From an uncultured bacterium (GTDB lineage Bacteria > Margulisbacteria > WOR-1 > CAVSGV01), in contig CAVSGV010000006.1 in NCBI GenBank assembly GCA_963727815.1, positions 28,541-92,540 on the forward strand: DNA of 64,000 bases, in the 5' to 3' direction. The notes beneath the pieces were generated by a model. It saw only the letters and a program-made list of their open reading frames with translations, made no database searches and was not told the DNA's origin. How positions within the stretch are numbered: position 1 is the first letter of the stretch; the number at the start of each line of letters is the position of its first letter. Made by a program: the position numbers and the translations under genes. Shown here one piece after another: positions 4,603-20,216 of the stretch.

Positions 4603-4642
4603 TAGTGAATAGAGGATAGTGTATAGCGGATAGAAAAAATAA

Positions 4643-5119
4643 TTAAGACTTGGTTCTGATCCTGTCCACGAAGTCGGATACTTTCTGAAGGTGTTTGCCG
4701 GCACCGATCTCCCAATCCTTGATCTCCAGTGTCGCAGCCGGTTCTTTACCAAGGATTGAACTCATGGTCTTGAAAGCGTTCGATGCCCCTGTGTTTCCTT
4801 CCGTGCAGAAGAAAGCCGCGTTCGATATTTTTTCCGCGTTCTCGCTCAGGAAAGTCCTTATCGCCGGGCTCAGGTTCCACGCGAATATCGGTGTCCCGAT
4901 TATCACCATGTCATAGGAATCGATGCTCTTCATTACGTCCGATATCTTCGTAAGATTTCCCATCGAGGCATCACGTCCGGAAGTAAGCCATCCCCAGATG
5001 CCGCGCCTGTCCACCTTGTCCTTAATTTCTTCGATGTCGCACTTGAGGACGAAAGATATGGCTTCCGCCACTTTTTTGGTGTGGCCGGAGCGGGAATAGC
5101 AGATAACTAGCGTTTTCAT
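4643..5119 (-). CDS. flavodoxin-like protein
   Basis: The N-terminus MKTLVICYSRSGHTKKVAEAI is the classic flavodoxin FMN phosphate-binding loop. 158 aa. Confidence 0.7.
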   Translation of the reverse strand: MKTLVICYSRSGHTKKVAEAISFVLKCDIEEIKDKVDRRGIWGWLTSGRDASMGNLTKISDVMKSIDSYDMVIIGTPIFAWNLSPAIRTFLSENAEKISNAAFFCTEGNTGASNAFKTMSSILGKEPAATLEIKDWEIGAGKHLQKVSDFVDRIRTKS

Positions 5120-5128
5120 GATGTTGAA

Positions 5129-5545
5129 TTATACTCCAGGGCCGGTGATCGAATCAATCAAACTTTTAACTTTATTCCTGATATCATCTCTGATCCTTCG
5201 AACATCTTCGATAGGTTTGCCTTTCGGATCGTCGATATGCCAATCAATGTAATGCTTTGAAGGATAGATCGGGCAAGTGTCTTCGCATCCCATCGTCACC
5301 ATGTAATCGAATTGCTTGATAGAAAGATCGTTAAAGCCTTTCGGCTTGCTTCCTGAAAGATCGATGCCCGCTTCCTTCATCGCGGAAGCAACTGTCGGAT
5401 TGATATCTTTGCCGGGTTTTGAACCGGCCGAATGCGCGTCGATCTTGTCCGATGCCAGGCTGCGCGCGAAAGCTTCGGCCATTTGCGAACGGCCCGCATT
5501 CTCCACACAAACAAATAATACTTTTAGTTTCTCCGTTATGATCAC
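5129..5545 (-). CDS. arsC: arsenate reductase, thioredoxin-coupled LMW-PTPase type
   Basis: CX5R(S) P-loop VCVENAGRSQMAEA plus downstream Cys pair GCEDTCP. 138 aa. Confidence 0.8.
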   Translation of the reverse strand: MIITEKLKVLFVCVENAGRSQMAEAFARSLASDKIDAHSAGSKPGKDINPTVASAMKEAGIDLSGSKPKGFNDLSIKQFDYMVTMGCEDTCPIYPSKHYIDWHIDDPKGKPIEDVRRIRDDIRNKVKSLIDSITGPGV

Positions 5546-5553
5546 TCCAGGAT

Positions 5554-5619
5554 GTCACTCTGAGCGAAGCGAAGAGTCTGTGTTTGATAAGGCAGATGCT
5601 TCGCGCTGCTCAGCATGAC
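5554..5619. repeat. REP-like inverted-repeat element, copy 1
   Basis: Arm gtcactctgagcgaagcgaagagtctg (5554-5580) and imperfect reverse-complement arm cagatgcttcgcgctgctcagcatgac (5593-5619). It lies between the arsC start and the phoU stop. Confidence 0.85.
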
Positions 5620-5623
5620 AAAT

Positions 5624-6337
5624 TCAAACTTTCTTTTTTTCCTTCCAGTCCTTGCCGACGAATTTTTTCAGCTCTTCAACGTTGTGTTTTATCATCTTGG
5701 CTTCCACCATGTAGACCACGTCCTCCGCGATGTTGGTGGCATGGTCGGCTATCCTTTCGAGGTGCCGCGCGATGAAGATGAGCAGGACAGATTGAGGGAT
5801 GACGTCCCTATCCTCCATCATTACAGTTATGAGCTCTTCGGTGATGAGATCGCGGTAATTATCAGCTTCATCATCGCTGTTCCACACTTCTCTCGCGATG
5901 TTCAAGTCGCGTTTAACGAAAGAATCCAGAGCGCCTTTCACCATCCTCTGAGCAACGTCTCCTAGCTTCGGGATGTCGATGAGCGGCTTAGGAAGCGGAT
6001 GCGGCATCATTTCAAGTGATCTCTCGGCTATGTCCACCGCCAGGTCCCCTATCCTTTCAAGATCGGTGGCTATCCGCATTCCCGTTGTTATGAATCGAAG
6101 ATCGATCGCCATCGGCTGGCGAAGAGCGAGAAGGCTGACGCATTTTTCGTCGATCTCGACTTCGAGCTTGTTGATCCTGTCGTCGCCGCGGATGACGTTC
6201 TTCGCCATCTCCTCGTCTTTTTTCTTGAGGGATTCAACCGAGTTCCTTATGGCGGCTTCCACCAAGGAGCCCATCTCCAGTATCATCTTGTTCAATTCTT
6301 TCAATTCATCGTCGAACGTCCTGTGTTCAGCGGGCAT
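5624..6337 (-). CDS. phoU: phosphate signalling complex protein PhoU (copy 2 of 2 in the window)
   Basis: 237-aa two-repeat PhoU architecture (DDxINxLE...DLERIGDxAxNIAE appears twice). It is highly similar to the ORF at 20182-20895. Confidence 0.9.
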   Translation of the reverse strand: MPAEHRTFDDELKELNKMILEMGSLVEAAIRNSVESLKKKDEEMAKNVIRGDDRINKLEVEIDEKCVSLLALRQPMAIDLRFITTGMRIATDLERIGDLAVDIAERSLEMMPHPLPKPLIDIPKLGDVAQRMVKGALDSFVKRDLNIAREVWNSDDEADNYRDLITEELITVMMEDRDVIPQSVLLIFIARHLERIADHATNIAEDVVYMVEAKMIKHNVEELKKFVGKDWKEKKKV

Positions 6338-6388
6338 GTGCCACCTCTTTCACGGACATTCTATCAGAGAAAAGCTTTACGGGGAATC

Positions 6389-6697
6389 TCAAGAAGCGCG
6401 GCCGCGCAGCTTCGCAAGCGCCTGCACGGAAAATTTGTGTATCTTTGTCAGGTCCTTCGGCCTTCCTTTGGAGGGCTTTATCTTCAATGCCGCTGCCTTT
6501 TTTATCACCCATTTGAACTTTACCACGTCAGATCTCTTGAGCGGTGAATGCTTATCCGAGGATTCGATCGTTTTTTCCGCGTCTGACAATCTCGCGTTGA
6601 CGACGGATGAATACTTCACCATTATGTCGTTAACGGCCGTCCGTATCTTCTGTATCTCAAGAGCCGCTTTTTTGGCAAGGCCTGAACGCGCCATCAT
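6389..6697 (-). CDS. hypothetical basic 102-aa protein, member of the Pho operon
   Basis: ATG at 6697 is preceded by GGAGGT. It lies co-directionally between the Tmk-like genes and phoU. I recognise no family. Confidence 0.5.
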   Translation of the reverse strand: MMARSGLAKKAALEIQKIRTAVNDIMVKYSSVVNARLSDAEKTIESSDKHSPLKRSDVVKFKWVIKKAAALKIKPSKGRPKDLTKIHKFSVQALAKLRGRAS

Positions 6698-6927
6698 CTT
6701 ATTACCTCCGCAAGTACTTTTTCGATCTTCGCCCTCCCCCTAGTAGACATGTTCAGGAACAGACTTATTAAGGTTGAGCTTAGCCTTCAATACATTCAAA
6801 CCGTATATTCCTGCCTTAAAATAGAGCCAGCATTTACTTAAATTGTCCCCCATTTGGACAAATATCGCAACTATCTTATATTGAATCCATTGAGGTATCA
6901 AGCATCGTTCTGTTTTCAGCAACGAAG

Positions 6928-7614
6928 TCAGGCAATGCCAGCCCTTCTATTATAGAGGATCGTCGGCATATAGACAGTAATTTTCCCTTTCCGCTCTGGA
7001 TAACCTAAGATATTCATATCTTCATATCTTAAAAAATCTGCATCATTTGAAACAAACGTGGAAATATTAAATGCATTTGCATAAGCAAGAATACAGGCGT
7101 CAGTTGATAATATTTTATATTTTGCAATTATCTTTGGAAGCGCAGTTAACACATCAATAACAACAGGACTCCCAGAAGCTCCCTTAGGAACATTAGCATT
7201 GGTTGCGTATATAGGTTGAATCCCTTCCTTTGAAAGCCAGCCAATAAACCCCGACAACCTGGGTTCAATGTAATTCTCGGGCATTTCATTTGGCTTAAAT
7301 TTATAATAATCATGCCATATTTTCTCAGCCGCCTTATATGGCAATTTTAATTTCTCATGAATGAACAAGATTAAATAGTGCTTATAAAGTAAATGGAGTG
7401 CTTCCTCAATAGAAAATATTGAAATATAAAGCTTATTTCCATTCTTTTTTAGCTCTTCATAAAATTTATCGCTTTCATCATAAATCTGATATTCTTCAGA
7501 CCTTGTATCGTGAGGTTGAACACGTATGCTATATATAAAATTAGTATCTAAGCAGATATTTTTATTTTTTGGGGAATAAATTGAATCGGAAAATGAGTAA
7601 TTATCCGCTATCAT
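6928..7614 (-). CDS. PIN-domain-like nuclease (toxin-like), with a large insert
   Basis: Four acidic positions lie in PIN-like contexts: ICLDTNFIY, SIEEALHLL, LSTDACILAYA and VSNDADFL. Its start overlaps the stop of the upstream small ORF by 4 nt. Confidence 0.5.
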   Translation of the reverse strand: MIADNYSFSDSIYSPKNKNICLDTNFIYSIRVQPHDTRSEEYQIYDESDKFYEELKKNGNKLYISIFSIEEALHLLYKHYLILFIHEKLKLPYKAAEKIWHDYYKFKPNEMPENYIEPRLSGFIGWLSKEGIQPIYATNANVPKGASGSPVVIDVLTALPKIIAKYKILSTDACILAYANAFNISTFVSNDADFLRYEDMNILGYPERKGKITVYMPTILYNRRAGIA

Positions 7615-7844
7615 TTACTTCTGTAAAAGCCTATTACCGCTGAACCTTCCTTATCAATTACCTCATTTTTCGTAGCCTTTTTTTGGATAGGGTTACTATT
7701 GAAAGGTAAATTCATAACAGCTAACATTTTAATCTCATATGGCTGCTTTTTGTCCACCATACTCTTTAATTTCGGGTCTTTATCTATCAAAGCATCAAGA
7801 TCAGCTTCGGTAGGATAGAATAATTTTGAAAAAACTGCTGACAT
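7611..7844 (-). CDS. small partner protein of the PIN-like gene (antitoxin-like by position)
   Basis: The ATG giving MSAVFSKLF is preceded by GAGGAG. The track start at 7862 is a TTG sitting on the RBS. It is translationally coupled to the PIN-like gene. Confidence 0.4.
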   Translation of the reverse strand: MSAVFSKLFYPTEADLDALIDKDPKLKSMVDKKQPYEIKMLAVMNLPFNSNPIQKKATKNEVIDKEGSAVIGFYRSK

Positions 7845-8029
7845 AACCTTTAATCTCCTCAATTATTTATCGTCACAAAGGAGAGGGAATTTCACTAATT
7901 GATAGATTATACCCATCCAGATCATAACAAGTCAACCATATTCAATTTAAGGTCGACATTAGCCATCAATGCATTAAATCCGTGTTTCTCTGCATTACAC
8001 GAGGACTAGCATTTACTTGATTGATAACA

Positions 8030-8726
8030 TTAGATTCTAAGGGTGGCTGTTCCTGAATCAGGATCTTCTGGATAAAAACGGTTTTTTTGACTTAATTGAA
8101 ATTGTTCCGCTTTTTTCTTTAACTTTTCGATTTCAGGTAAAGCCATTTCCTTGAACGATTTGTCCGAAGAAAATGAAGCAACATGTGTCGGGCCTCCAAC
8201 GCTTCTATCCTGTGAACTCGTTTCTTGTATACACAAAACACACATTTCCGCCCCAGCCTCTGTTTTTATATCTGACTTATAAAGACGATTGAGAAGGTAA
8301 TCTGCAATATATGGAACTCGAATAAAATGAAAGCCTGTGACGCCTTTTCTTGGAGACAAAATTATCCTCGCTTCGAAGAATATACATTTCTGGAGTACAA
8401 TCCAAAGTATACCCAATCAACAGCAATGAAAGGTTTGGCCTTTGACTTGGTTGCAAATGTTCATAAAAATCATTAAATTTAGCTTTCCCTTTAACCCTGA
8501 TTTGTTCTGCCAAATTTGAAATTCCTGTCAAATGATCTAAATCAGCTTTAATTTGATCGAGAAAATACATAGCAAGGCCTCCGTCTCCCGCAATGCCTAT
8601 CGCACTATGTTCACCAAGCTTGAAAACCTTTTGAATAGTATCATTGCTTGTTATAACAGAGCTTGCTCTACTATCGGAAGCGATTACAACTCCATCTTTA
8701 GCTTTCAGGCCAATAACTAGTGTCAT
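8030..8726 (-). CDS. proteasome beta-subunit/HslV-like Ntn hydrolase (frame break near 8350-8360 in this assembly)
   Basis: The N-terminus MTLVIGLKAKDGVVIASDSRAS places the Thr nucleophile right after Met, followed by GIAGDGG. The fold continues in the track ORF at 8030-8416 (GVTGFHFIRVPYIADYLLNRLYK...GGPTHVA) after a 1-nt shift. Confidence 0.65.
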
Positions 8727-8727
8727 T

Positions 8728-9084
8728 TTAGTTGAGGTTTACCTTTATATCCAGAGAGCTTTGTGGCTCAGTTTGATTGAATCGAGGGGCATATTGTTTA
8801 TACATCTGTTTTTCTATGGCTTTCCTCTTTTCTTCTCCTTTAATGCTGGCATATCGAAATGCAAAATTCCCATCTTGTTTAATAAAAATGCTCTCTGAGA
8901 GTTTTTTAGATAACTCATCCCCCAAGTCAGGACTGCTTCCAATAAAAACAACATAAAATTTGTCATCAGGTTCTTTCCTAGAAATACGATAAACCCCCTC
9001 GATCCCATTGAGTAAGGGTTTTATTGCATCATTTGTAAACGGGATAAGCTTAGACCATTGCAAAGTTAGATCGAGGTTTTCCAT
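8728..9084 (-). CDS. small GIY-YIG-like protein (divergent)
   Basis: GVYRIS...FYVVFIGSSPDLGDEL...EEKRKAIEKQMYKQYAPRFN follows the GIY...YIG...E...N spacing of GIY-YIG nucleases. Its stop lies 1 nt before the ATG of the proteasome-like gene. Confidence 0.4.
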   Translation of the reverse strand: MENLDLTLQWSKLIPFTNDAIKPLLNGIEGVYRISRKEPDDKFYVVFIGSSPDLGDELSKKLSESIFIKQDGNFAFRYASIKGEEKRKAIEKQMYKQYAPRFNQTEPQSSLDIKVNLN

Positions 9085-9138
9085 ACAGTTTATTTTTTAT
9101 CCTTTCCTATCATCGTTTTTCTTGGGATTTTAAGTACT

Positions 9139-9526
<388 letters not shown>

Positions 9527-9675
9527 CATGGGAAAAATACAGCGAGGAATATAAAGAATATGAGGAATTCAAGAAAAAACATAACGTGGGGCTCAATGAA
9601 TTATTCCCAAAGGGCCATATGCCCCCCGTTCAACCTAAAAAATACGGCTAGGCGTAGAAGCGGGCTCTTGAAGAG

Positions 9676-10677
9676 ATGAAAAATAAGCCACAAACTGAGA
9701 CAGGGAAATTGCTTTCAAGAATGTTTGATAACAAGTTTGATATAACAGACCTCAAAGAAGCACTCAAAATCAGCGATTGGATACTTCTCATGGATGAGGA
9801 CGAATATTCAGAGAGTTTCTTAGCAAAGAAAATCTTTAATTCAATCATTGATTACACATCATTTGAGGTTATGCCAGACAAGAAAACGGCAAAGACACTA
9901 CGCAATGATCTGGATGATTACTTGGAAAGCTTTATCAAAAATACGCTCAAAACGAGTTCCCGTGAAAGAAGAGTCAGCGAGATAATCGTCCTACAAAACC
10001 CCAATATCTACACATTTAATAAACACAAAGAAATGATCCTCGCACTGTTTCAAGATATGCGGGAAAATTATGGAGACACTTTTGTGTTTGAAAATCCTTT
10101 TGAGGGAATACCATTTGAAGCAGACAATAAAGAGAGTATACAGCAACGTTACGCCGCCAGACAGTTTCTTTTTATACATGCTATCCTTGCTTTTGAAAAA
10201 CTCGGATATATCAAAATTCTTGCACTCGGAAATAATTGGCATTGGGCAAACGCCAATGATGATAATCTTAAATATTATGCAAAAATTCAATTGCTCCCAT
10301 CTCTCTACCAAGGACAGAAGCATGAAATAGATGGCACAAATAAAACCGACAAGACAATCTGGTCATATAATCCATCGACAGGGATACTTTCGATTAACGG
10401 CAAAAACATCCAATTTAAGAAAAATAATTTTAGGGCTAAGGTTTTAGAGCTATTAACCAAAAACAGTAGAAACATGAATAAAAAATGGTCGTGGGATGAG
10501 ATTTACGAGGCAATCGAAAGGAAAAGAAGCGAAGAAAAGTTAGGGAAAGAAGAACAAGATAAAGTTTATTACGCTTGTGAAGGCATTACTGAATATATAG
10601 CAAATAAAAGTGGTGTAACCGGATTTATTATATTTGATAAGCAAACCGCACGAATAAACCCCGTATTACTGCCTTGA
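9676..10677 (+). CDS. hypothetical 333-aa island protein (possible C-terminal winged-helix)
   Basis: Long ORF with AT-rich codon usage matching the island. The C-terminal segment KKWSWDEIYEAIERK...VYYACEGITEYIANKSGVTGFIIFDKQTARINP looks like a DNA-binding wHTH. I recognise no family. Confidence 0.5.
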   Translation: MKNKPQTETGKLLSRMFDNKFDITDLKEALKISDWILLMDEDEYSESFLAKKIFNSIIDYTSFEVMPDKKTAKTLRNDLDDYLESFIKNTLKTSSRERRVSEIIVLQNPNIYTFNKHKEMILALFQDMRENYGDTFVFENPFEGIPFEADNKESIQQRYAARQFLFIHAILAFEKLGYIKILALGNNWHWANANDDNLKYYAKIQLLPSLYQGQKHEIDGTNKTDKTIWSYNPSTGILSINGKNIQFKKNNFRAKVLELLTKNSRNMNKKWSWDEIYEAIERKRSEEKLGKEEQDKVYYACEGITEYIANKSGVTGFIIFDKQTARINPVLLP

Positions 10678-10681
10678 TTTT

Positions 10682-10714
10682 GTAGGTCTACCGTAGGTCT
10701 ACTTAGGCCTACAC
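10682..10714. repeat. three tandem 11-bp units (iteron-like)
   Basis: GTAGGTCTACC / GTAGGTCTACT / TAGGCCTACAC, directly downstream of the 333-aa gene and about 420 bp upstream of the Rep remnant. Confidence 0.5.
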
Positions 10715-10871
10715 CTCATTTAGTAAGCTTAGCTTAATGTTAAACAGCGAAGCCGAACAATCATTTGAATACGATAAGGACATCAGCAATTTATCTCTTA
10801 CTGATGAAGAGATTAAAAGAGTTGCTGACCTCTTCGCTATTCTTGATCAAAGTTGATCAGAGAATAAAAAA

Positions 10872-11168
10872 ATGAAAACAAAGATAAGTGAAATACAAAT
10901 AACGCCGATTAAAGCTAAAGACGGATTGGTAGCTATAGCTAGTTTTGTCTATAACGGGGATTTTTATATGGGGTCAATCGGGATATACACAAGGCCACAA
11001 GCCGGATACCGATTGACCTACCCCACCCGTAAGACTGCTAACAATAGTTTTAACATTTTCCATCCGATCAACAAAACCATTGCGGAGGAAATTGAGAAAG
11101 CAGTAATCAGTAAATTTGAAGAGGTAATGAATCTGTATGATAGACACAATAGTATTAACACTGAGTAA
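10872..11168 (+). CDS. SpoVG-like DNA/RNA-binding protein
   Basis: Aligns by eye to SpoVG: KISEIQITPIKAKDGLVAIASFVYNGDF...YPTRKTANNSFNIFHPINKTIAEEIEKAV. Compare B. subtilis ...RAIASITLD...PSKRTPDGEFRDIAHPIN. Confidence 0.7.
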   Translation: MKTKISEIQITPIKAKDGLVAIASFVYNGDFYMGSIGIYTRPQAGYRLTYPTRKTANNSFNIFHPINKTIAEEIEKAVISKFEEVMNLYDRHNSINTE

Positions 11169-12306
11169 AGATATGTATCATATAACCGAACCGGATAAAT
11201 TTAAACCATCGGCACGCTGGATCAATACTGATACAGGCCGAATAGGGAAGCCGTGCCTATATAACATCTAAGCAAAACCCGACAAAAACTGAATTGCATA
11301 ACGGTATTTATAAGCCACGCCTTACTTTGACCAACCGTTTTAACCATACTGGAAGATATGAAGCATCATTGAAGATCGAGCTTTCTTTACCAAAACTTCT
11401 ATATGGAAATAACTTTGATGAATTAAAAGATTCTGATTTTGAAACGGTCTCAAACAAATTGCAAGAACGGCTAAAAGAAATGGGCGTTCATGTTTTCTAA
11501 GCAACTGCTTATCAAAGCTCCTGTTTCGGCGGTGCATTACTCAAAAAACATACCGCTTACAGACGGCTCGACCCCTTATCATTACATAAAGAAAATCAAA
11601 GAAGCTAATATCACTCAAGCTCTCGATACAAATCAAACAGATTTTCGCAATGATGGCCATAGCTTTAAGTGGCACTGCAATTCTTACGAAGTGGCATTCT
11701 ATGACAAGATCAAAGACCTTGAAGTATCAAAGAAAAGCGAAAAGCGGGCGATAGAAAAAGACAATGTTATGCAATTAGGGCTTTTTGATAAACTGAAAAA
11801 AAGAAGGCTATTTGAAGTTTTGAGGATGGAGGTTAGACTAAATAAACGGCAAAAAATAAGTCAGATATTCAAAAAGCTTGAGATAGGCAGTGAGATAACA
11901 TTTCAAAGTGTTTTTGACGCAAAAAAATCCCAAATAGTTTTATGCATTATCTTGTCGAGGTAGAAAAGCAAAGGCCAGCCCTATTAGACCGGACATATAA
12001 CGATCCCCAAGCATTTTGGCTGATATTGTTATAAGCAATCCAAATCTGAGAGCAAGACAAGCATTACAGGCTTTTGGATTAAAGCAGGCGTTTGATAAAA
12101 TTGGGATGCGGGAGCTAAGAAAGATACTTAACAGATTAAGTGATCGGTCTTGGTATCGTTTAGTTAAAACTATCAAGCAAGTAAAACTTGCGAAAAAGAA
12201 TGACACGTTCGGGGTTATCCGCAAACATCTATTATCTTTTGAATCCCTGAAGTTAGTTAATTTTCAAAATGTCATCGATAATAAAAGAAGCTTGAACAGC
12301 GTATGA
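11137..12306 (+). pseudogene. rolling-circle replication initiator remnant (phage/plasmid gene II/X-like), four frame breaks
   Basis: Pieces read MIDTIVLTLSKDMYHITEPDKF... (11137-11271), ...SKQNPTKTELHNGIYKPRLTLTNR...SLPKLLYGNNF (to 11500), ...EVLRMEVRLNKRQK (11490-11963), MHYLVEVEKQRPALLDR (third frame) and ADIVISNPNLRARQALQAFGL (12016-12306). The family assignment is from memory. Confidence 0.5.
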
Positions 12307-12517
12307 TTAGCAAGAAAAGGCATAATGCCACAGAACGCAGGGCAAACGAGGCTCATAGGGGCTATTATCAGGCATTACAGGTGTTTTTACGGGCTTTTGG
12401 GGATAAGGGACGCTAAGGATCGGAGAGCTTGCACAGCAAACGGGGTAAGATAGGAATGGAATTTTCAGATAAAAAGGGCTTGATAATGTCTGTAAACCAT
12501 TGTAAAGTATATAGCAT

Positions 12518-12694
12518 ATGAAAACACAAGAATATTATTTAGCACAAGAGCTGGCCGACAAACTAAGAGTAAACATTATGACGATTTACCGCTACATCAA
12601 AGCTGGGAAGCTTGTTGCACATAAAATTGGCAAAGAATTTCGTATAAGCAATAAAGAGTTTCAGTCATTTTTAACTAAGGCGAAAACAAAATAA
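12518..12694 (+). CDS. excisionase-family helix-turn-helix protein (58 aa)
   Basis: MKTQEYYLAQELADKLRVNIMTIYRYIKAGKLVAHKIGKEFRISNKEFQSFL matches the Xis/MerR-type HTH pattern (...TvYrwikeGklpa.kiGr.wRi). It is below the ORF-track size cut-off and ends 4 nt before the RM gene. Confidence 0.6.
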   Translation: MKTQEYYLAQELADKLRVNIMTIYRYIKAGKLVAHKIGKEFRISNKEFQSFLTKAKTK

Positions 12695-12698
12695 ATAT

Positions 12699-15600
12699 AT
12701 GGACATAAAAGAATTACAAACTAAATGGAACAAAGAAAAGGGATACTACAAAACAAAAGAAGTCGGAGATGGACTACAACACTTTATTCGTCAATTATTT
12801 GAATGCCCCGCCCTATTTAACTTAAAACAAGGAAGCGGAGTAACAAAACATACTAAAAGAAAAAACGAGTTCACCATTGAAACCCGCAAAAGAGATAAAG
12901 CTGGTCAAGCTGATTACATCATTTTTATTGATGGAATAAACATTGTAATTCCTGTTGAAGTTGAAAAATACGAAAACATTAAAGCTGGCGAAAAACAGTT
13001 ACTAAAATATCAATTAGCATGGGATAGAAAATATGGCATTTTGACCGATGGCTTTACTTGGCGTTTCTATAATAACACCTCTTATATAACATTCAATATT
13101 GATGATTTATTTTCAAACACTAAAATATTTCTTACTTTCTGGAAAGAATATATAAAGCCTGAAAATTATTACCTCTCCTTCTTTGAAGAACAAGGTCAAC
13201 TATCATTATTTCAGAAAAATAGCGTTAAAGTTGAACGAGATCGAGAGTTATTCTTTGAAGACATAACGAGGTTAATTGATAACTTTAAGAATAAACTGAA
13301 TTTAGCTGGGTATTTTAACAGTAAAGATAAAAAGGAAAATGATAAAAAAGCAACGGAAATTACTTATGCTTACTTCATTCAATTTATTTTATATAAAAAT
13401 CTTGTTGATAATTGCTACCATAGTTTTGAAGATGAATTCAAGCAAAGGATAGAAGCTATACATAGAAGCTTAAAAGCAGAGGTTTATGATGCTGTCCTTA
13501 CGAACATAAAGAGTATTTCTAAGTTTATTTCTGAGAAGCTTTACAAGCCTTTTAATAAGGAACAAGAGTTCATAAATATTCATCTTGAGGAAATATTAAA
13601 TAAACCGAAAACCGAATTGTCAGATATATCCTTATGGTTAGATATTATTGTTTTCATAAATAGATATGACTTCTCAAATATAAGCAAAGACATCTTTGGT
13701 TATATTTACGAAAACTACTTAAAAGACCTCTATGACGAAACGAATAAAGGACAATACTTTACTGACCCAGCCATAGTTGAATTTATGTTAGATGAAATTG
13801 GTTATACTGAAAGAACAATCCAAAACAAATATCAGCAAGGAAAACTAAAAGAACTCTCATTGATTGATCCGAGCTGTGGGAGTGGCACTTTCCTTTATTG
13901 TGCCACCAATAGACTTATAAATGCTTTGTGGGATGATAATACTGAAAAAAAATCAAAACTCGTTGAAGATGCAATAAATAATAATATATTTGGATTAGAT
14001 ATTGCTGAATTTCCTCTTTATCTGGCTGAAATGAATATTCTAATGCGAATGTTGCCTTTAATTGTTAACGAAAAATACAACAACCCCATAGATAAGAAAA
14101 TCAAAGTTTTTAAGACAAATGATAGTGTTTCAGAATTTTTAGACATTAGAGGACAAAATCTTCAAGGTGATTTGTTTAATCAAAAGCTTTTAGCCCTAGG
14201 GTATGCGAGTTACATTCGGAATGAAGACGATTTGAAAGATATGAAGACAAGCTTGATCCCGCCCAAAAAACGTTTTGATTATGTTATTGGTAATCCACCT
14301 TATATTGGCTATAACGAATGTTGTAAACAGAAAATCTTAATTTTTGAACTGATAAAACAAAGAAAAAGTATTATTAAATGATATTTATGGTGTTAATTTG
14401 CATAGTATTCCAAACAATCCCAAACGATATAGGCCAAATCCGAATCTTTATGCCTTTTTTGTAGCGTTAGGCTTAGAATTATTAAAAGATAATGCGGTTA
14501 TATGTTACATTATTCCTCAAACAATATTAACGTCTGGGGATTTTGATGTTTTACGTTATCATTTATCAAAAAAAACTACAATTAAAAAGATTATTACCTT
14601 TGAAGGTAAAATGTTTATTGGGAGAGGATTAAAACAAAAAAACCCTGTTGCAACATCGAGCTTGATCTTTGTTGTTAAAAAGTCTTCCGCAAATGAAAGC
14701 CATAAAGTTACTATCGTAAACTACAAAGACTATAATGAGCCGGAATTTGAAAAATATTTGAGGGGACGCAACAAAGAAACCAAAACTATATTGCAGGCTG
14801 AACTACTAAAGAATATTAAAAATTGGAACTTCATAAAACAAAATGATACCTTTATAAGAATGTATGACAGCTATCTTGAAACAACACAAGATATGTCAAA
14901 TTATTATGAACATGATAGTGCGAGGAAAACATACAATAGCACCTTCTATTTTGATGGCGGCTATAGCATTGATGAGAAGCAACTCTTAAATGCCCCAGAT
15001 TTTTATATCTATCCTAAAATAAATAACAACTATTATACGATAAGAGACGCAAGAGGGTTTTGGCCAAATATTAGGCAGGGAAATTCTAAGCATAGGATAG
15101 ATTTAAGACAAGGTAATCAAGAATATCATTTATTGGATAGTGAATATAAAATTATCTGGTCATACGCAAATATGCAAAGATTCTTTTTTACAGACAAACC
15201 TGTCATATGGGCGAGAAATCAATTTAATGCTATTGGCTCAAATAACAAGAGCGAACTTTTATATTTATTTTCTTTACTTAATTCGAGCTTAAACTTTTGC
15301 ATATTAAAAAGCATGTTAAAAAGTGAGAACGAGAAGGATTTTTTGATCGCAACTAATTCCGTGAAGCAATTCATTCGAGCCCCAATTATAAACCAAAACA
15401 ATCAAATAATTAAAGATGAGATTATAAAACAAACGGAGATTATGCTTAATTTGGAAACCTCTTCTATGTCAAATTATGTTGATTTTGGAAACATACAAAT
15501 GCAAAAGTTTGACAGGGTTGAATTCGACAACAAGAATCTTATCTTATATAAAGAAAATAATAGAATCTTAGCTAAAATTAAAAGCAATCCTGAGTTAATT

Positions 15601-15855
15601 AAGCAAATTATTGCCGATAAATATAGCGAAAAGAATTTGGCTGGCAATCCAATTATTTCATTAACAGAACTTAAATCAACCCCAGTTATTGATTGTAATG
15701 AACAGGAAAGTGTTAAAGATTATATTGATACACTTGTATTTGCTCTGTATTTCAATATTAAGCTTAGTAAAGTAGGATTTGAATATGCTAAACGAATCAA
15801 AACGAAATGTAAGGGAAACAAGTTTTATACTTATATTGAATCTGGAGAACAATGA
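12699..15855 (+). CDS. type IIG restriction-modification enzyme (nuclease + N6-adenine methyltransferase + specificity domain), frame break at 14356-14370
   Basis: N-terminal PD-(D/E)xK-like motif ADYIIF...IPVEVEK followed by GILTDGFTWRFY. Methyltransferase motif I is IDPSCGSGTFL and motif IV is GNPPYIG. The second ORF frame is open from 14356 (NKEKVLLNDIYGVNLHSIP), so removing one A from the AGAAAAAG run fuses both ORFs. Confidence 0.8.
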
Positions 15856-17360
15856 AAGCAATAATTGTCGCACGAGTATCCACTGAAGAGCAAAAGGAAG
15901 CTGGCAATTCCCTCCCCGCTCAAATTGCACGACTTAAAAAGCATTGTCAAGGCAAGGGGTTTGAGGTCGCAAAAGAATTCAGCTTCGACGAAAGTGCATA
16001 TAAAGAGCATCGAGATGACTTCGATAACATCCTTGATTATGTTATCAGCCAAAAGGAAAAAATAGTTGTTTGTTTTGACAAGGTAGATCGGCTGTCCCGA
16101 AACATCTTTGATAAACGAGTATCCCTGCTCTACGAAAAAGCGTTAAAAGACGAGATTGAACTTCACTTTGTATCAGATGGACAGGTTATCAATAGCCAGC
16201 TTTCCGCAGTGGAAAAGTTCAATTTCAGCATGAGTCTTGGGCTTGCTAAATATTATTCGGATGCCATAAGCGACAACGTTAAAAGGGCACAGGAACAAAT
16301 CCTAAGAAGCGGTAGATACCCCCACTCGCTCCCTTATGGATATAAAAAAATCATACGAGATGATGGTAAAAGTAATTATGTAATTGATGAATATGCCTCC
16401 CGAATAGTCCAGAAAGTTTTTGAATGGTATGCAACCGGAGCATTTTCAATGAATTTGATCCTTGATAAGCTGATAAAAGAATATGGGATCAAATGGTCAA
16501 AGAGCTTTTTGGATAAAGTCCTTAAAAATACTTTCTATTATGGGCTTATGGTATGGAAGGGTAAGACATGTAAACATGGGTATCCGACCATCATTACCTA
16601 TGCCCTGTTTGAACAAGCACAACAAGTAAAAGCTGGCCATAATAAAAAGAAATTCAAATATGCTGGGCTTCCGTATATTTATCGAGGCCTTATTCGATGC
16701 AACCATTGCGGGCTTGCTATTACTCCTGAAAAACACAAAGGGCATGTTTATTACCATTGCACAGAATATAACGGCAAACACGATGCCAAGTGGCTTAAAG
16801 AAGAAGCTATAACCGAACAACTTAGCCAAGTATTCAAAAAACTACGCTTACCGGATCATGTCATGGATAAAGTTATTAACACACTCAAAAATGTCCATGA
16901 GGATAAAAATCAATTTAGGGATAAGCAATATGAGGAATTATCAAAAGAACATCAACTCTATACAGCCAGAAGCGACAAATTGTATGTCGACAAACTCGAT
17001 GGGCGTATTACTGACGTTGCCTATGACAGATATTATCAATCCTTCAGGGATAAGATAGCCGAAATGGATGCAAGATTAGCCTTACTTCAAGATGCCGAAG
17101 ATAATTACTATATCACTGTGAAATACTTGCTAGACATAGCTAAAAGAGCTAATGATCTATTTGTCTGTTCGGAAGTTGAAGAAAAAAGGCAAATTATCAA
17201 GTTAATACTTCCGAACCTTAGGATGGATGGCAATACTTTGCGATATGAAGCACAAAAACCGTTTGATTCTCTACTCGCTTATGCGGATAGTAAAGGAAAG
17301 CTCAGCTCAAGGTTCACGTCCTGGATCGTCCTGTTCGCGTTCACGACGTCAAAATTATAA
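15852..17360 (+). CDS. large serine recombinase (integrase)
   Basis: The resolvase-type N-terminus AIIVARVSTEEQ carries the catalytic Ser. A recombinase domain, a zinc ribbon CNHCGLAITPEKHKGHVYYHC and a C-terminal coiled-coil region follow. Its last 20 codons run across the right junction into host DNA. Confidence 0.9.
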   Translation: MKAIIVARVSTEEQKEAGNSLPAQIARLKKHCQGKGFEVAKEFSFDESAYKEHRDDFDNILDYVISQKEKIVVCFDKVDRLSRNIFDKRVSLLYEKALKDEIELHFVSDGQVINSQLSAVEKFNFSMSLGLAKYYSDAISDNVKRAQEQILRSGRYPHSLPYGYKKIIRDDGKSNYVIDEYASRIVQKVFEWYATGAFSMNLILDKLIKEYGIKWSKSFLDKVLKNTFYYGLMVWKGKTCKHGYPTIITYALFEQAQQVKAGHNKKKFKYAGLPYIYRGLIRCNHCGLAITPEKHKGHVYYHCTEYNGKHDAKWLKEEAITEQLSQVFKKLRLPDHVMDKVINTLKNVHEDKNQFRDKQYEELSKEHQLYTARSDKLYVDKLDGRITDVAYDRYYQSFRDKIAEMDARLALLQDAEDNYYITVKYLLDIAKRANDLFVCSEVEEKRQIIKLILPNLRMDGNTLRYEAQKPFDSLLAYADSKGKLSSRFTSWIVLFAFTTSKL

Positions 17361-17956
17361 TCCCTGCAAATGTTGACGAACTCTTTTTTGACCTTGTTCT
17401 GGTATTTGATCATGCTGTCGAACCAGTCCCTTGAAAATCCCATGTCCATTCCAGACTCCCAATAGTCAAGCGCGGGGTGGGAACTCAGCGTGCGGTCTAC
17501 GAGCGTTTTCATCGAAAGATCCAGGAAGAACACCGCATCGGGAACGAGTGCCATTTGATACAGCGACTTTACCCATTCGCCTTCCGCTCCCCTGACGATG
17601 TCGCGTATCATCAGAGTGAAAATATATCGATCGGCCAGGACGACGCACCCGGCGTTCAAAGCAGGCATGATGTTGTTTTCAAGCTGGTCGTAAAAATCGG
17701 TCGCGTAGAACAGCGACATGGTCCGAGGACTCAGCACGTTGCCATTCTTCGCCGTCTCAAGCTCCTCGCTGACCAGGAGGGACCTTTTTAATCCCGCGCT
17801 TACCACGGCATAGCCTTTCTGTTCCAGCCAGGGGATGAGGTTCGCGATGTGCGTGGACCTTCCGGAAGAATCCATGCCCTCGATGACTATAAGCGCTCCC
17901 TGCAGCTTTTTCGGCTCAACTCCCGCCGGCGGCTTGCCGAAGAATTTGTTGCTCAT
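17279..17956 (-). CDS. thymidylate-kinase-like P-loop protein 2 (Walker A Lys replaced by Arg); 3' end replaced by island DNA
   Basis: VIEGMDSSGRST P-loop and a LADRYIFT DRY-type motif. The tail ...LELSFPLLSA is encoded by island sequence from 17300 downward. ATGA overlap with the upstream paralog. Confidence 0.7.
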   Translation of the reverse strand: MSNKFFGKPPAGVEPKKLQGALIVIEGMDSSGRSTHIANLIPWLEQKGYAVVSAGLKRSLLVSEELETAKNGNVLSPRTMSLFYATDFYDQLENNIMPALNAGCVVLADRYIFTLMIRDIVRGAEGEWVKSLYQMALVPDAVFFLDLSMKTLVDRTLSSHPALDYWESGMDMGFSRDWFDSMIKYQNKVKKEFVNICRDYNFDVVNANRTIQDVNLELSFPLLSA

Positions 17957-18630
17957 ATCTCTCTCCTCTTGTGATGCTCGGCAAGGTCGATCTTTTTCGA
18001 TATCAGCTCCCTTACCTGCATCTGCATAACATTGATCTTTTGCGTCGCGTCTATCTCGCTGAACCCGAATTCCTTGGACATGGCGTTATATTGTTCATGT
18101 ATCCGACCCTGGAAGAGCTTAAAGCTTTCTTTTATGTCCGGTGAAAGGTTAAGGTCCTGACCGGCCTCAAAATACTTCAACTCCGGCCGGCCTTCAAGGA
18201 TTCTGGAAAGCGCGACATCAAGAGGGACCTTGAAATAGAGGATGATGTCCGGCTCCTGAACGAACCCGTAAAGCTTCCTTAACCAGGCGGGATCGCATCC
18301 TCTTACGGTATCCCTCGCGTAAGAAGTGTATATGTACCTGTCGCAAAGCACGATGTACCCGCCTTTCAGCATGGGGAGTATCTGCCGCTCATACCGGTCG
18401 GCGAAATCCGTCGCGTGTATGAGGCTGAAGGTGGTGGGCGTAAGGAGCCTGCGTTTTTTGGCTTTCTTTGTCGCTTCCTTCACGAGTTCGCTTGAATTCC
18501 ATTCGGTGAAGAACACCTTGTAGCCGAGCCCTAAAAGCCATTTATACACAAGATAAATCTGAGTGGATTTACCAGACCCATCGAGTCCTTCCACTGCTAT
18601 TAATTTCCCCGCCAGCCCCATGTCCTTCAT
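17953..18630 (-). CDS. thymidylate-kinase-like P-loop protein 1
   Basis: AVEGLDGSGKSTQ P-loop and a CDRYIYTSYA motif. ATG at 18630 forms an ATGA overlap with the ppx stop. The track start at 18711 is probably an over-extension. Confidence 0.75.
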   Translation of the reverse strand: MKDMGLAGKLIAVEGLDGSGKSTQIYLVYKWLLGLGYKVFFTEWNSSELVKEATKKAKKRRLLTPTTFSLIHATDFADRYERQILPMLKGGYIVLCDRYIYTSYARDTVRGCDPAWLRKLYGFVQEPDIILYFKVPLDVALSRILEGRPELKYFEAGQDLNLSPDIKESFKLFQGRIHEQYNAMSKEFGFSEIDATQKINVMQMQVRELISKKIDLAEHHKRREI

Positions 18631-20216
18631 TTTATGTTCCTTTGAGATATCAATCTCGGCTTGACCCTGAATAACCTGACGAACAGCTTCGCTTTTCTTT
18701 CGAATGCCCACGTATCAAGCGATATCATCCTTCTCGCGTGATAATAGATCTTTACTTTCCTTTTGTTCATGACGACCTTTATCTTCCGTATCCTCTGCAG
18801 ATGGTCCCTGTCAAGCGCGTCGGCGATCCTTAAGATGGACGCTAGCCTCGCGACTATCTTCCGGTTCTCGCTGCTCAACTTCATGAACTGGTCGTGTCTT
18901 ACCGTAGGCTCGCTTTTTCTGTGATATCTCGCTATGTTAGCGGCCATCACCATGTCGAGCGGCGAAAAGCTGGGAAGCTCGAACTGCGAGATCATGTACA
19001 TGGAATGTTTATGGTGGTTCTTGTAGCTGATGCACGTCCCGATATCGTGGAGCAGCGACGCGGCAAGGAGGAGCTTCCTTTCGTACGGGCCGAGCTTATG
19101 CAGGCTTCGTAATTGATCGAAAAGCGAGAGCGACAGCTTGGACACATGAGATCCGTGTTTCTCCTCAAAATTGAACTTTCTTCCAAGGTTAAGGGCGGAT
19201 TCACAGATCATTTTCTCGTGTTCTTTTATCCATTCTCCTCTTTTGGATATCTCCCGCATGAGGTCGATTATGACGCCTTCCTTCACGCCGACGAAAGGAA
19301 CGGTTATCGATTTCGCTTTGACCTGGTTCGCCACGTGGGAATAGACCATGGCGGCCGGAAGTATCACGTCGGCCTTATCGCTGCTCAATGAAAATCTCTT
19401 CATCCTTTCTTTTTCGGAATACTTTGACAGCTGTTCGGCGAAGTTCTTCAGTTTCTTGACGTTTATTATCCGAACGCCCTGATTATCGGGGGTCGAGCCG
19501 ATGAGATGGCTTATCCTTTCGATATTGCCTCCTGTCGCTATGATTCTGCGGCAGCGGAAAGCTTTTTTTATCTTGAAGATGGATATGAATTCCTTAAGCA
19601 GCTTATAGAACCTTTTTGGGTCGTTCCTCGCGATATCGAATTCCTCAAGAAGCCTTACCGCGCCGATGCCCCTTGATTCCGTCTGTTTTATGCCTTTTCC
19701 GTCGACCAGCGATATCTCAACGCTGCCGCCGCCAAGGTCCATCAGAAGTGATCGGCCAGATTGAAGGTTAATCTTTTCCCGGACCGACAGATATGCCAAT
19801 CTGGCTTCTTCTATGCTTGATATTATTTCTATCCTGATGCCGATCTTTTTTCTTGCATTATCAATGAGCTCTTTTCCGTTCTTCGCTTCTCTTAAAGCGC
19901 TGGTGGCCACAGCCCTGTAGTAAGAAACGTTGAATGACATCATTTTCGCGTTTATTACGCTAAGCACGGAGAGGGCATCGCCGATCGTCTTCTTGTCGAG
20001 ATACCCGCCGAGAAAAACGCTTTTCCCCAGCCTTAACGGGAATCTCTCGGAATATATCGGCGAGTATTGTTCCGGTCCGTAGAATTCGGATATTTGCAGA
20101 CGAACGGCGTTCGACCCGATGCCAACTGCAGCCACCATGACGGGAAAAGGTTTCAGCGGCGCGGTTTTTTGCGGATCCTTGCTATATAGACGGTTTTTCC
20201 ACCCAATCCTTGCCAA
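18627..20216 (-). CDS. ppx: exopolyphosphatase / guanosine pentaphosphate phosphohydrolase family protein with HD domain
   Basis: Ppx/GppA ASKHA-fold N-terminus (VGIGSNAVRLQI...DLGGGSVE) and C-terminal HD region (LLHDIG). The alternative start at 20138 (MVAAVGIGSN) would remove the 35-nt overlap with phoU. Confidence 0.85.
   Translation of the reverse strand: MARIGWKNRLYSKDPQKTAPLKPFPVMVAAVGIGSNAVRLQISEFYGPEQYSPIYSERFPLRLGKSVFLGGYLDKKTIGDALSVLSVINAKMMSFNVSYYRAVATSALREAKNGKELIDNARKKIGIRIEIISSIEEARLAYLSVREKINLQSGRSLLMDLGGGSVEISLVDGKGIKQTESRGIGAVRLLEEFDIARNDPKRFYKLLKEFISIFKIKKAFRCRRIIATGGNIERISHLIGSTPDNQGVRIINVKKLKNFAEQLSKYSEKERMKRFSLSSDKADVILPAAMVYSHVANQVKAKSITVPFVGVKEGVIIDLMREISKRGEWIKEHEKMICESALNLGRKFNFEEKHGSHVSKLSLSLFDQLRSLHKLGPYERKLLLAASLLHDIGTCISYKNHHKHSMYMISQFELPSFSPLDMVMAANIARYHRKSEPTVRHDQFMKLSSENRKIVARLASILRIADALDRDHLQRIRKIKVVMNKRKVKIYYHARRMISLDTWAFERKAKLFVRLFRVKPRLISQRNIK

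Follow-up and report, generated by a model that had tools for sequence, protein, structure and literature searches.

Genomic islands with tyrosine integrases target tRNA genes, and the core that they share with the target is typically tens of bp long. The filamentous phage PhiRSM carries a small serine recombinase and is found at tRNA-Ser. Archaeal integrases of the SSV1 type are tyrosine recombinases with attP in the int gene, which is split near its 5' part and inactivated. For phages with serine integrases, a review of mycobacteriophages states that tRNA genes are not used (PMC9262239). Streptococcal ICEs with a single serine integrase that insert in rumA exchange the 3' parts of the integrase gene and rumA reciprocally, with both C-termini changed; of the two copies of a short direct repeat, the target gene contains one and the integrase gene its partner (PMC4701971). 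PhiBT1 and PhiC31 integrate precisely at pseudo-attB sites in which little beyond the core dinucleotide is conserved, with identities of 27-48% (PMC5937489).

The locus described here is a foreign AT-rich island with its own serine integrase, inserted precisely in the last codons of a kinase-like gene. The whole stretch of DNA that was analysed, 64 kb in length, is referred to as the window. The AT-rich block spans approximately 6.74 to 17.30 kb of it, and the GC content drops there from about 0.50: the values are 0.51 for the left flank, 0.335 for the island (0.347 without its poly(A) run) and 0.49 for the right flank. Both flanks belong to one minus-strand Pho cluster, in which PstSCAB, PhoU, Ppx/GppA and two Tmk-like genes stand on one side of the island and a 102-aa ORF, PhoU and an LMW phosphatase on the other. 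The interrupted parts of the operon are:

17279-17956, minus strand: Tmk-like gene in its present state, ending ...VNLEL-SFPLLSA-stop, with the native 13-residue C-terminus exchanged for the island-encoded SFPLLSA
6694-6735, minus strand: displaced native 3' end of the Tmk-like gene, encoding RAKIEKVLAEVIR-stop, its TGA overlapping the ATG of the 102-aa gene
5129-6697, minus strand: downstream operon genes severed from their upstream partners (102-aa ORF 6389-6697, PhoU 5624-6337, LMW phosphatase 5129-5545), in the same gene order as in the metagenome contig L001

In the related metagenome contigs L001 and L002 the operon runs Pst-PhoU-Ppx-Tmk-Tmk-small ORF-PhoU without the island, and the DNA is continuous across the junction, establishing the empty site, which reads CCTTGAGCTGAGGGCGAAGATCG in L001. 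The block is also missing from a 70% identical relative (L087). The TGA of the displaced 3' end overlaps the ATG (6697) of the 102-aa gene as ATGA, and the same 4-nt overlap is present in L001 and L002. All 17 Tmk-like homologues in the alignment, the most distant of them about 62% identical, have a longer native C-terminus and no island-encoded tail; the sequence in the two closest (identity 86-87%) is ...LEL-RAKIEKV(L/I).... The SFPLLSA ending was found in the window protein only and in none of the homologues compared. No tRNA gene was detected in the whole 64-kb window, the island flank being a protein-coding gene, and a search of the window for rRNA or other RNA gave no Rfam match. The host tRNA-Asn gene lies outside the window.

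The exact ends of the element were established by comparison with a sister element, L003. Identity between L003 and the window begins exactly at 6734 (CTCCCCCTAGTAGAC...), the flanks being unrelated, and homology at the 3' end of the L003 integrase gene stops exactly at 17303 (...GGAAAGCTC). These limits define CTC as the core common to both ends. Similarity of the host DNA to the empty sites in L001 and L002 breaks off at the attL core and picks up again at the attR core, attL and attR have only CTC in common, and no target sequence was duplicated or lost relative to L001 and L002. The element and its cores are:

6737-17300, no strand assigned: element proper, 10,564 bp from one CTC core to the other with both cores excluded (10,567 bp with one core counted)
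6734-6736, plus strand: attL core CTC, with the host B arm to the left, the element P' arm to the right and the crossover CT or TC inside
17301-17303, plus strand: attR core CTC, with the element P arm to the left and the host B' arm to the right

The reconstructed attP reads ...GGAAAG-CTCCCCC-TAGTAGAC..., or with longer arms ...GTAAAGGAAAG-CTCCCCC-TAGTAGACATGTTCAGG..., and the reconstructed attB reads ...CTTCGCC-CTC-AGCTCAAGG... (with the longer left arm ...GATCTTCGCC-CTC-AGCTCAAGG...). The latter lies 13 codons ahead of the stop in the second Tmk-like gene of the Pst/PhoU/Ppx operon. The crossover dinucleotide is CT or TC, as the sequence fits both. Inverted-repeat symmetry around the attP and attB centres reached at best 8-9 of 24 positions when every candidate centre was scored, which was not above expectation. 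A search for promoters and terminators in the left part of the island, its left arm, gave no signal above shuffled expectation.

The last gene of the island encodes the integrase, and its 3' end is parted by integration:

15852-17360, plus strand: large serine recombinase (LSR; integrase), 502 aa in the integrated state, intact, the last island gene, pointing outward
6737-6841, plus strand: 3' segment of the integrase ORF, joined only when attP is intact; 35 further codons, PLVDMFRNRLIKVELSLQYIQTVYSCLKIEPAFT-stop, split from the gene body in the integrated state

The integrase matched PF00239 Resolvase (E=2e-18), PF07508 Recombinase (E=1e-10) and PF13408 Zn_ribbon_recom (E=8e-7) in Pfam and the integrase family phrog_95 in PHROGs (E=6e-64). 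Its catalytic-serine motif is RVS10T, with R8, V9 and S10 invariant in alignments of 24 and 30 sequences. It is 94% identical to P0121, the integrase of L003, with about 6% of residues differing. The element-encoded part ends ...YADSKGKL, and the last 19 codons (SSRFTSWIVLFAFTTSKL-stop) run antisense through the Tmk-like gene. In the integrated enzyme the swap is confined to the last 34 residues, and all catalytic and DNA-binding domains are intact. Counted from the start of the core, the detached tail has an open frame of exactly 35 codons in all four of the window, L003, L088 and L090, and the differences among them fall preferentially on third codon positions. L090 has this tail contiguous with the LSR gene at a tandem-element junction, and P0222, from circular contigs, has a similar attP-type tail. 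In the family at large, neither the length nor the sequence of the attP-type tail is constant, one arginine excepted. A family-wide conserved tail module was dropped from consideration, the tail being coding in the close clade and variable beyond it.

These results bear out much of a sequence-only reading of the same DNA, namely an AT-rich block interrupting the minus-strand Pho operon (the compositional profile is not flat), an island-encoded end on the Tmk-like ORF, the ATGA overlap at 6697 and a recombinase, here with three LSR domains, that is the last gene and points outward. Its central proposal, an element inserted in the Tmk-like 3' end with a reconstructable attB, agrees with the empty sites and with the ends matched by L003. 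It had asked for an empty site in related genomes, which was found, and had named homologues naturally ending in SFPLLSA as a refutation, of which there were none among those compared.

The integrase belongs to a family of more than 1,800 homologues, with 464 matches in species-representative genomes, Patescibacteria and Dependentiae accounting for many. A tRNA gene abuts the integrase 3' end in 47 of 60 family genomic loci, demonstrating that the family targets tRNA genes; the remaining 13 have no adjacent tRNA gene. In 49 of the 120 closest homologues the tail reads a T-loop antisense, and in none of these 120 does it read the Tmk gene. L003 lies at the tRNA-Asn 3' end with CTCCCCC on its flanks, and in L003 and L090 the integrase 3' end abuts the tRNA 3' end on the opposite strand, which is not the case for the window copy. 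L088 and L089 are placed at a non-tRNA or tRNA-like fragment. A contiguous attP (aaaggaaagCTCCCCCtggtagacatgttcagg) occurs in L090 between tandem elements, and a related integrase that has an attP-type tail is encoded on three circularly permuted contigs of 12.6-12.8 kb. The integrase clade normally targets the last nucleotides of tRNA-Asn(GTT), and the Tmk-like gene is probably not the normal target of the element. The window attB and the tRNA-Asn attB agree at 9-12 of 32-50 positions, no more than expected by chance, with CTC alone in common. A tRNA mimic at the window site was rejected when the site ranked in the middle of the distribution of all host CT/TC sites by similarity to the tRNA-Asn attB. 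Exact-pattern searches gave no match for the circular junction of the window element in viral and metagenome collections or for the empty site in the metagenome collection; these collections also missed the positive control L002, and these negatives therefore carry little weight. As a mobile island it is of an ordinary kind, its one unusual feature being that its closest relatives insert into tRNA genes.

The other features of the island are:

6928-7614, minus strand: PIN-domain protein, 228 aa (PF01850, E=7e-8), variable left-arm cargo with no counterpart in L003
7611-7862, minus strand: 83-aa ORF without family matches, overlapping the start of the PIN gene by 4 nt
8030-8726, minus strand: proteasome/HslV-like Ntn-hydrolase gene (PF00227, E=8e-14), apparently truncated or frameshifted
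8728-9084, minus strand: 118-aa ORF without family matches
9143-9525, plus strand: 383-nt poly(A) run, in the place taken in the L003 homologue by the 5' third of a 495-aa gene
9676-10677, plus strand: 333-aa ORF, the C-terminal two thirds of a conserved 495-aa backbone protein, its N-terminus lost at the poly(A) run
10872-11168, plus strand: SpoVG-family protein, 98 aa (PF04026), a backbone gene also present in L003, L088, L089 and L090
11246-12303, plus strand: remnant, in three frames, of a backbone gene of about 387 aa, intact in L003
12518-12694, plus strand: HTH_17 (excisionase/MerR-like) small DNA-binding protein (PF12728, phrog_66), with a homologue in L090 (76% identical) that occupies the corresponding position
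12699-15855, plus strand: Type IIG restriction-modification enzyme (Eco57I/MmeI-like), as ORFs 12699-14381 and 14398-15855 in different frames

Several of these genes look damaged, suggesting that the island copy is partly decayed. In the HslV-like gene, ORF 8277-8726 aligns to the Pfam profile from position 7 to position 122 (of 189), and it is overlapped by a second frame at 8030-8416. The break between the two restriction-modification ORFs falls within the Eco57I methylase domain. Compared with the L003 copy, the gene of about 387 aa has single-base indels at 11241, 11498, 11944 and 12016. The 495-aa gene is truncated, the 333-aa ORF being 88% identical to L003 residues 163-495, and the adjoining poly(A) run is probably an assembly or gap artefact. 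A role of the protein of about 387 aa as replication initiator was considered and dropped: searches of Pfam, PHROGs, NCBIfam, PADLOC and PDB sequences gave no match, and its AlphaFold model, confident as it was (pTM 0.82), found no fold match in the PDB. It matched only unnamed viral proteins and, weakly, an Inoviridae Rep. The HTH_17 protein is a candidate regulator or directionality factor; we know of no common sequence signature for recombination directionality factors. Among the main island ORFs, PHROGs matches were limited to the integrase, the excisionase-like HTH protein and the HslV-like protein, and no capsid, tail, terminase or lysis genes were found with PHROGs on these ORFs or with Pfam. 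No Pfam or NCBIfam domain of a relaxase, coupling protein or type IV secretion system was detected in the scanned island ORFs, which were those of at least 50 aa. By its gene content the element would be a non-conjugative integrative island without recognisable phage structural genes.

We consider it likely that the locus arose by integrase-driven integration of a circle at a secondary site in the Tmk-like gene. A non-conjugative element of about 10.57 kb would have entered the genome as a circle, and its own large serine recombinase, which we infer to have catalysed the event, would have joined attP with the chromosomal Tmk-like site by strand exchange at a 2-bp overlap (CT or TC) within the common CTC, with zero duplication or deletion. 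Because attP sits inside the integrase gene, at its 3' end, the insertion swapped the 3' ends of two convergent genes, integrase and Tmk-like. The kinase-like protein has lost RAKIEKVLAEVIR and gained SFPLLSA, and in the integrase a tail of 34 residues has given way to 18 residues that are read antisense from the host gene. Since the Tmk site has only the CTC core of the tRNA-Asn target, its use would best be read as secondary-site (pseudo-attB) integration. The translationally coupled 102-aa ORF, PhoU and phosphatase have been displaced 10.6 kb from the promoter side, with presumable consequences for their expression. Points that speak against this account are that neither a circular junction nor a strain-level empty site of this very element turned up in the collections searched (negatives of little weight), that the att arms show no clear inverted-repeat symmetry, and that the poly(A) run reveals flaws in the island assembly. 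The island shortens one of two paired Tmk-like kinases in a phosphate-starvation operon and uncouples the small ORF, the second PhoU and the phosphatase from it, which bears on annotation and physiological inference.

A base-exact set of attP, attB, attL and attR is now available for an uncharacterised serine-integrase clade that is abundant in uncultivated small-genome bacteria and may be useful there. As a natural example of sites sharing only the core, the locus also bears on the off-target reach of serine integrases in genome engineering. More tentatively, and with doubts on our side, the clade could represent an undescribed LSR lineage that recombines at tRNA ends with attP in frame and a state-dependent tail controlling integration versus excision, the window being a rare jump into a compositionally distant host at a 3-bp site. 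If this were true, the integrase tail would differ between the free or tandem form and the integrated form, and would depend on the target when integrated.

Integration at a secondary site has to be weighed against the Tmk-like 3' end being a genuine preferred attB, reached on target by an integrase with a new specificity. In its favour, about 6% of residues separate the enzyme from its tRNA-Asn-using sister, and targets do vary in the family, as seen from the 13 of 60 loci without an adjacent tRNA gene and from L088 and L089. However, the window and L003 have nearly the same attP arms in the 60 bp surrounding the core, the Tmk gene is read by no tail among the 120 closest integrases, and this junction was carried by one contig only in the searches made. 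The chance-level likeness to the canonical attB and the lack of detected symmetry also speak against it, and we regard a new specificity as unlikely. An assembly or binning artefact, by which the AT-rich block would come from another organism or from a free element, is very improbable. It would need two independent joins at adjacent host bases, exactly at the attP arms with the common CTC, and both hybrid ORFs fit conservative site-specific recombination; the poly(A) run as a local assembly problem, the several single-base indels in the block, and a composition and relatives' hosts (Patescibacteria, Dependentiae) unlike the flanks are what could be said for it.

The sequence-only reading had placed the crossover in a CT at 6740-6741 and 17301-17302, giving a native C-terminus ...LELRGRAKIEKVLAEVIR and an uninterrupted gene ...LELRGRAKIEKV.... 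This geometry keeps the frame and has CT at both places. At the left junction, however, the core is the CTC at 6734-6736, 6 bp away. The six bases are absent from the closest homologues and from both empty-site DNAs, and bases 6737-6741 (CCCCT), formerly assigned to the host flank, are element DNA found in the conserved element end of L003, L088 and L090, each with another flank. Compared with all 17 homologues, the two closest and the other 15 alike, the joined C-terminus ...LEL-RG-RAKIEKV... is two residues too long, and the restored ending is ...NLELRAKIEKVLAEVIR; on the evidence of the L001 and L002 empty sites and the L003 ends, the attB given as cgccctccccctcagctcaagg has to be replaced by cgccCTCagctcaagg. 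We therefore hold the original geometry to be highly improbable. It is scarcely conceivable that the block is ancestral and was precisely deleted in relatives, as 17 of 17 homologues have the longer native C-terminus and none ends in SFPLLSA, the block is compositionally foreign, and its ends are attP arms common to elements in other genomes.

The island has parallels in several described systems. Like the integrases of the PhiC31, Bxb1, A118 and TP901-1 type, the window enzyme has the Resolvase, Recombinase and zinc-ribbon architecture with a catalytic serine, recombination is conservative with a very short core (here 3 bp) and no target duplication, and the integrase gene adjoins attP at the element end. 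It differs from them in that the carrier has no recognisable phage structural or conjugation genes, the clade usually targets the extreme tRNA 3' end, and attP lies inside the integrase ORF. As with tRNA-targeting islands and PhiRSM, the sister elements sit at a tRNA 3' end and leave the tRNA intact, whereas a large serine recombinase is encoded here, the shared core does not exceed 6-7 bp and the window copy does not occupy a tRNA gene. Integration parts a segment of the integrase ORF from the rest, as in the SSV1 type, but the window integrase keeps all domains and exchanges its last 34 residues only. The gene-end exchange geometry of the streptococcal rumA ICEs is also found in the window, in an element without a conjugation module, with another target gene, other host phyla and an apparently non-canonical site. 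Finally, the window site resembles the PhiBT1 and PhiC31 pseudo-attB sites in having about 25-30% identity to the canonical attB with only CTC shared. Those sites were used by vectors in heterologous hosts in the laboratory, whereas the window represents a natural event in an environmental genome, with a canonical site in a tRNA gene.

The sequence-only reading had placed an AT-rich block in the minus-strand Pho operon, with the recombinase as its last gene, pointing outward at the right end. Both were found. In a sliding profile the GC content was about 0.48-0.54 on either side and fell clearly to 0.28-0.39 from about 6.75 to 17.3 kb (left flank 0.509, island 0.335, right flank 0.490). The gene content of operon and block, taken from the ORF list and Pfam scans, was as follows.

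Minus strand, Pho cluster: histidine kinase, PstS, PstC, PstA and PstB
20182-20895, minus: PhoU, upstream of the block in the operon
18627-20216, minus: Ppx/GppA, upstream of the block in the operon
17953-18711, minus: first thymidylate-kinase-like (Tmk-like) gene, upstream of the block in the operon
17279-17956, minus: second Tmk-like gene, adjoining the AT-rich block
15852-17360, plus: large serine recombinase with Resolvase, Recombinase and Zn_ribbon_recom domains
12699-15855: type IIG Eco57I/MmeI-like restriction-modification enzyme, variable cargo
11246-12303: remnant of the ~387-aa backbone gene (4585-5754 in the sister element on contig L003)
10872-11168: SpoVG-family protein, conserved backbone
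9676-10677: remaining C-terminal 333 residues of the 495-aa backbone protein
Left arm: PIN-domain protein, 83-aa ORF, proteasome/HslV-like protein and 118-aa ORF, variable cargo
6389-6697, minus: 102-aa ORF, beyond the block
5624-6337, minus: second PhoU copy, beyond the block
5129-5545, minus: low-molecular-weight phosphatase, beyond the block

When the reconstructed kinase was used as query in a protein search, the window's own 225-aa protein was found on one 659-kb contig. The close relatives were 231-232 aa long (P0002, 87% identity; P0003, 86%), and on their contigs this operon is present and not interrupted by the block. An empty site, as predicted for related genomes, was present in L001, with the uninterrupted order PstSCAB-PhoU-Ppx-Tmk-Tmk-99 aa-PhoU-phosphatase, and in L002, where a 102-aa ORF comes after Tmk; on both contigs, Tmk and the next ORF share a 4-nt overlap. 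The block was also absent from L087, a 70%-identical relative. Ppx/GppA followed by two overlapping Tmk-like paralogues forms a conserved module (window 17279-20216, L001 3822-6699, L087 1766-4699), which in the window and L001 lies within a Pst/PhoU operon, ahead of a ~100-aa ORF without family.

As the sequence-only reading had it, the second Tmk-like ORF ends in ...VNLEL-SFPLLSA, and minus-strand 6694-6735 encodes RAKIEKVLAEVIR-stop, with the TGA overlapping the ATG of the 102-aa gene. None of the aligned homologues ends in SFPLLSA; the closest two of the 17 read ...LEL-RAKIEKV(L/I)..., and the "RG" of the C-terminus joined in that reading consists of two extra residues absent from all 17. 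The empty-site DNA of L001 reads, on the gene strand, ...AACCTTGAGCTGAGGGCGAAGATCG..., and the window matches it until ...GAGCTGAG on the right side and again from GAGGGCGAAG... on the left, so that the shared plus-strand bases are CTC at 6734-6736 and 17301-17303. The restored kinase ends in ...NLELRAKIEKVLAEVIR.

The same limits were obtained from L003, whose integrase (P0121, 94% identical) is the nearest homologue of the window's. The L003 element has CTCCCCC at its flanks, a left end reading ...gtaCTCCCCCtagtagacatgttcagg... and a right end adjoining the 3' end of tRNA-Asn(GTT). In pairwise alignment, similarity to the window starts exactly at 6734 (CTCCCCCTAGTAGACATG...) and stops exactly at 17303 (...GGAAAGCTC); beyond the ends the flanks are unrelated, which fixes the element ends to the base. 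The attP is ...GTAAAGGAAAG-CTCCCCC-TAGTAGACATGTTCAGG..., and L090 has the same attP as contiguous DNA between two tandem elements beside tRNA-Asn. The integrases of this tandem (L090 1896-10311) are 36% identical, both end in ...ADSKGKL and share the attP core. In the window, attL and attR have nothing but CTC in common, which leaves CT or TC as the 2-bp crossover. The homologue alignment, the L001 empty-site DNA and the L003 end match together contradict both an ancestral origin of the block and the junction geometry first proposed. The sequence-only interpretation was right in substance, and its right CT falls within CTC 17301-17303; its left CT (6740-6741) lies 6 bp too far right and has to be moved.

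The backbone common to the window, L003, L088/L089 and L090 consists of the 495-aa protein, the SpoVG-family protein, the ~387-aa protein, a small HTH protein and the integrase. L003 and L088 encode an N6/N4 methylase with a ResIII helicase where the window has the type IIG enzyme, and no phage structural or conjugation genes were detected in the island ORF scans. For the ~387-aa protein there are 2,150 homologues, but Pfam, PHROG and NCBIfam place it in no family. Its confident AlphaFold model (pTM 0.82) had no fold match among PDB structures, matched the unnamed viral proteins A0A345MP47, A0A345MVG1 and A0A345N4R7 (E ~1e-9) and weakly matched Inoviridae Rep, a hint rather than a result that it may act in replication.

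Compared with its intact counterpart in L003, the window's ~387-aa gene carries four single-base indels. The Eco57I methylase domain is divided between two frames and the proteasome-like gene is shortened; the integrase body has zero indels. A 383-nt pure poly(A) at 9143-9525, between divergent island genes, is the sole homopolymer of at least 12 nt in the 64-kb window. It replaces the 5' third of the 495-aa gene, lying where L003 has the first ~110 codons of that gene and the region upstream of it, and is most probably an artefact of assembly or of a gap. Two explanations fit this state of the copy: decay of the element in place, or poor assembly or polishing of the island region. The intact flanking host genes slightly favour real decay, and the poly(A) run calls for caution.

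Read through attP, the integrase frame gives ...YADSKGK-L-PLVDMFRNRLIKVELSLQYIQTVYSCLKIEPAFT-stop. Counted from the core, exactly 35 codons stay open in each of the window, L003, L088 and L090, with tail differences biased to third codon positions (e.g. 4/1/10 for L003 vs L088). A large serine recombinase gene in L090 reads this tail, and a similar one occurs in the homologue P0222, whose three source contigs (12.6-12.8 kb, from three samples) are circularly permuted. The open frame, the L090 gene and P0222 all indicate that attP lies within the integrase gene, so that two convergent genes trade 3' ends on integration. Here the integrase gains SSRFTSWIVLFAFTTSKL, an antisense reading of the kinase gene, and the kinase gains the element-encoded SFPLLSA. 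Tails of the attP type differ in both length and sequence over the wider family, so we do not claim the tail as a conserved functional module. The circularly permuted contigs L004, L005 and L006 (integrase 61% identical, attP-type tail), with ankyrin-repeat proteins and a Toprim/DUF3987 primase-like protein as cargo, seem to represent a related element in its free, circular state. A 60-aa ORF without family match (6740-6922, minus) overlaps the integrase tail segment; no gene was called at the corresponding place in L003, and the ORF is probably spurious.

More than 1,800 integrase homologues were found, 464 of them by a scan of species-representative genomes; most of the best 80 of these 464 lie in MAGs that bear the labels Patescibacteria, Dependentiae/Babeliales and Gammaproteobacteria/Pseudomonadota. 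Among these 80, several genomes have 2-3 copies (L031/L037, OY969622.1; L042/L051/L085, MFD01231.bin.2.11; L060/L061/L068, JAGVLQ01), in some cases (Babeliales L031/L037; L060/L068) at different tRNA genes (Arg, Glu, Asp). At 47 of 60 loci ARAGORN called an opposite-strand tRNA gene whose 3' end adjoins that of the integrase: Asn(GTT) in the clade nearest the window, Asp, Glu, Gln or Arg elsewhere. The tail ...WLPR(E/Q/L)DSN..., an antisense T-loop, was present in 49 of the 120 closest homologues; in 48 others the reading frame closes within three codons. The L003 and L090 elements (integrases 94% and 81% identical) are both at tRNA-Asn, and those of L088/L089 (84%) at a tRNA-like fragment. 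In L088 (~11440-11480, with an equivalent in L089) the right end adjoins CTCCCCGGGCTGGTTCGTTTCGAAC, which resembles a tRNA-Asn acceptor and T-arm; ARAGORN called no tRNA there, and the fragment is perhaps a tRNA remnant, degraded or displaced, that serves as target. These loci indicate that the normal target of the family is a tRNA gene. Such tRNA-end targeting is at least uncommon among serine integrases, and our literature searches found no report of it for this clade.

No tRNA gene lies within the 64-kb window. Anchored on the core, the window attB matched the L003 tRNA-Asn attB at 9-12 of 32-50 flanking positions, and 39-61% of all host-DNA CT/TC sites score at least as well. A true new attB specificity for the Tmk-like 3' end is unlikely: the attP arms of window and L003 are nearly identical, which does not suggest a change of specificity, and no tail among the 120 closest homologues reads the Tmk-like gene. 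An assembly chimera is more improbable still, as it would require two joins at adjacent host bases, both exactly on the attP arms. The most economical reading is integration at a secondary site that has the core alone in common with the canonical target.

For the host, the kinase-like protein loses the C-terminal segment kept by its closest relatives, its translational coupling through ATGA with the 102-aa gene would be lost, and the 102-aa ORF, PhoU and phosphatase genes now stand behind 10.6 kb of foreign DNA. As the left-arm island genes share the direction of these three genes and a left-arm scan found no convincing terminator in between, read-through could still express them.

The insertion is real, a serine-integrase genomic island of a well-known kind that swaps gene ends. 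In Nocardia, PhiBT1 integrates at pseudo-attB sites with 27-48% identity to attB, among which the core dinucleotide alone is invariant (PMC5937489); the window site likewise shares the core and little else with the canonical target. The exchange of gene 3' ends on integration has the same geometry in the window as in streptococcal ICEs with a serine integrase that inserts them in rumA (PMC4701971).
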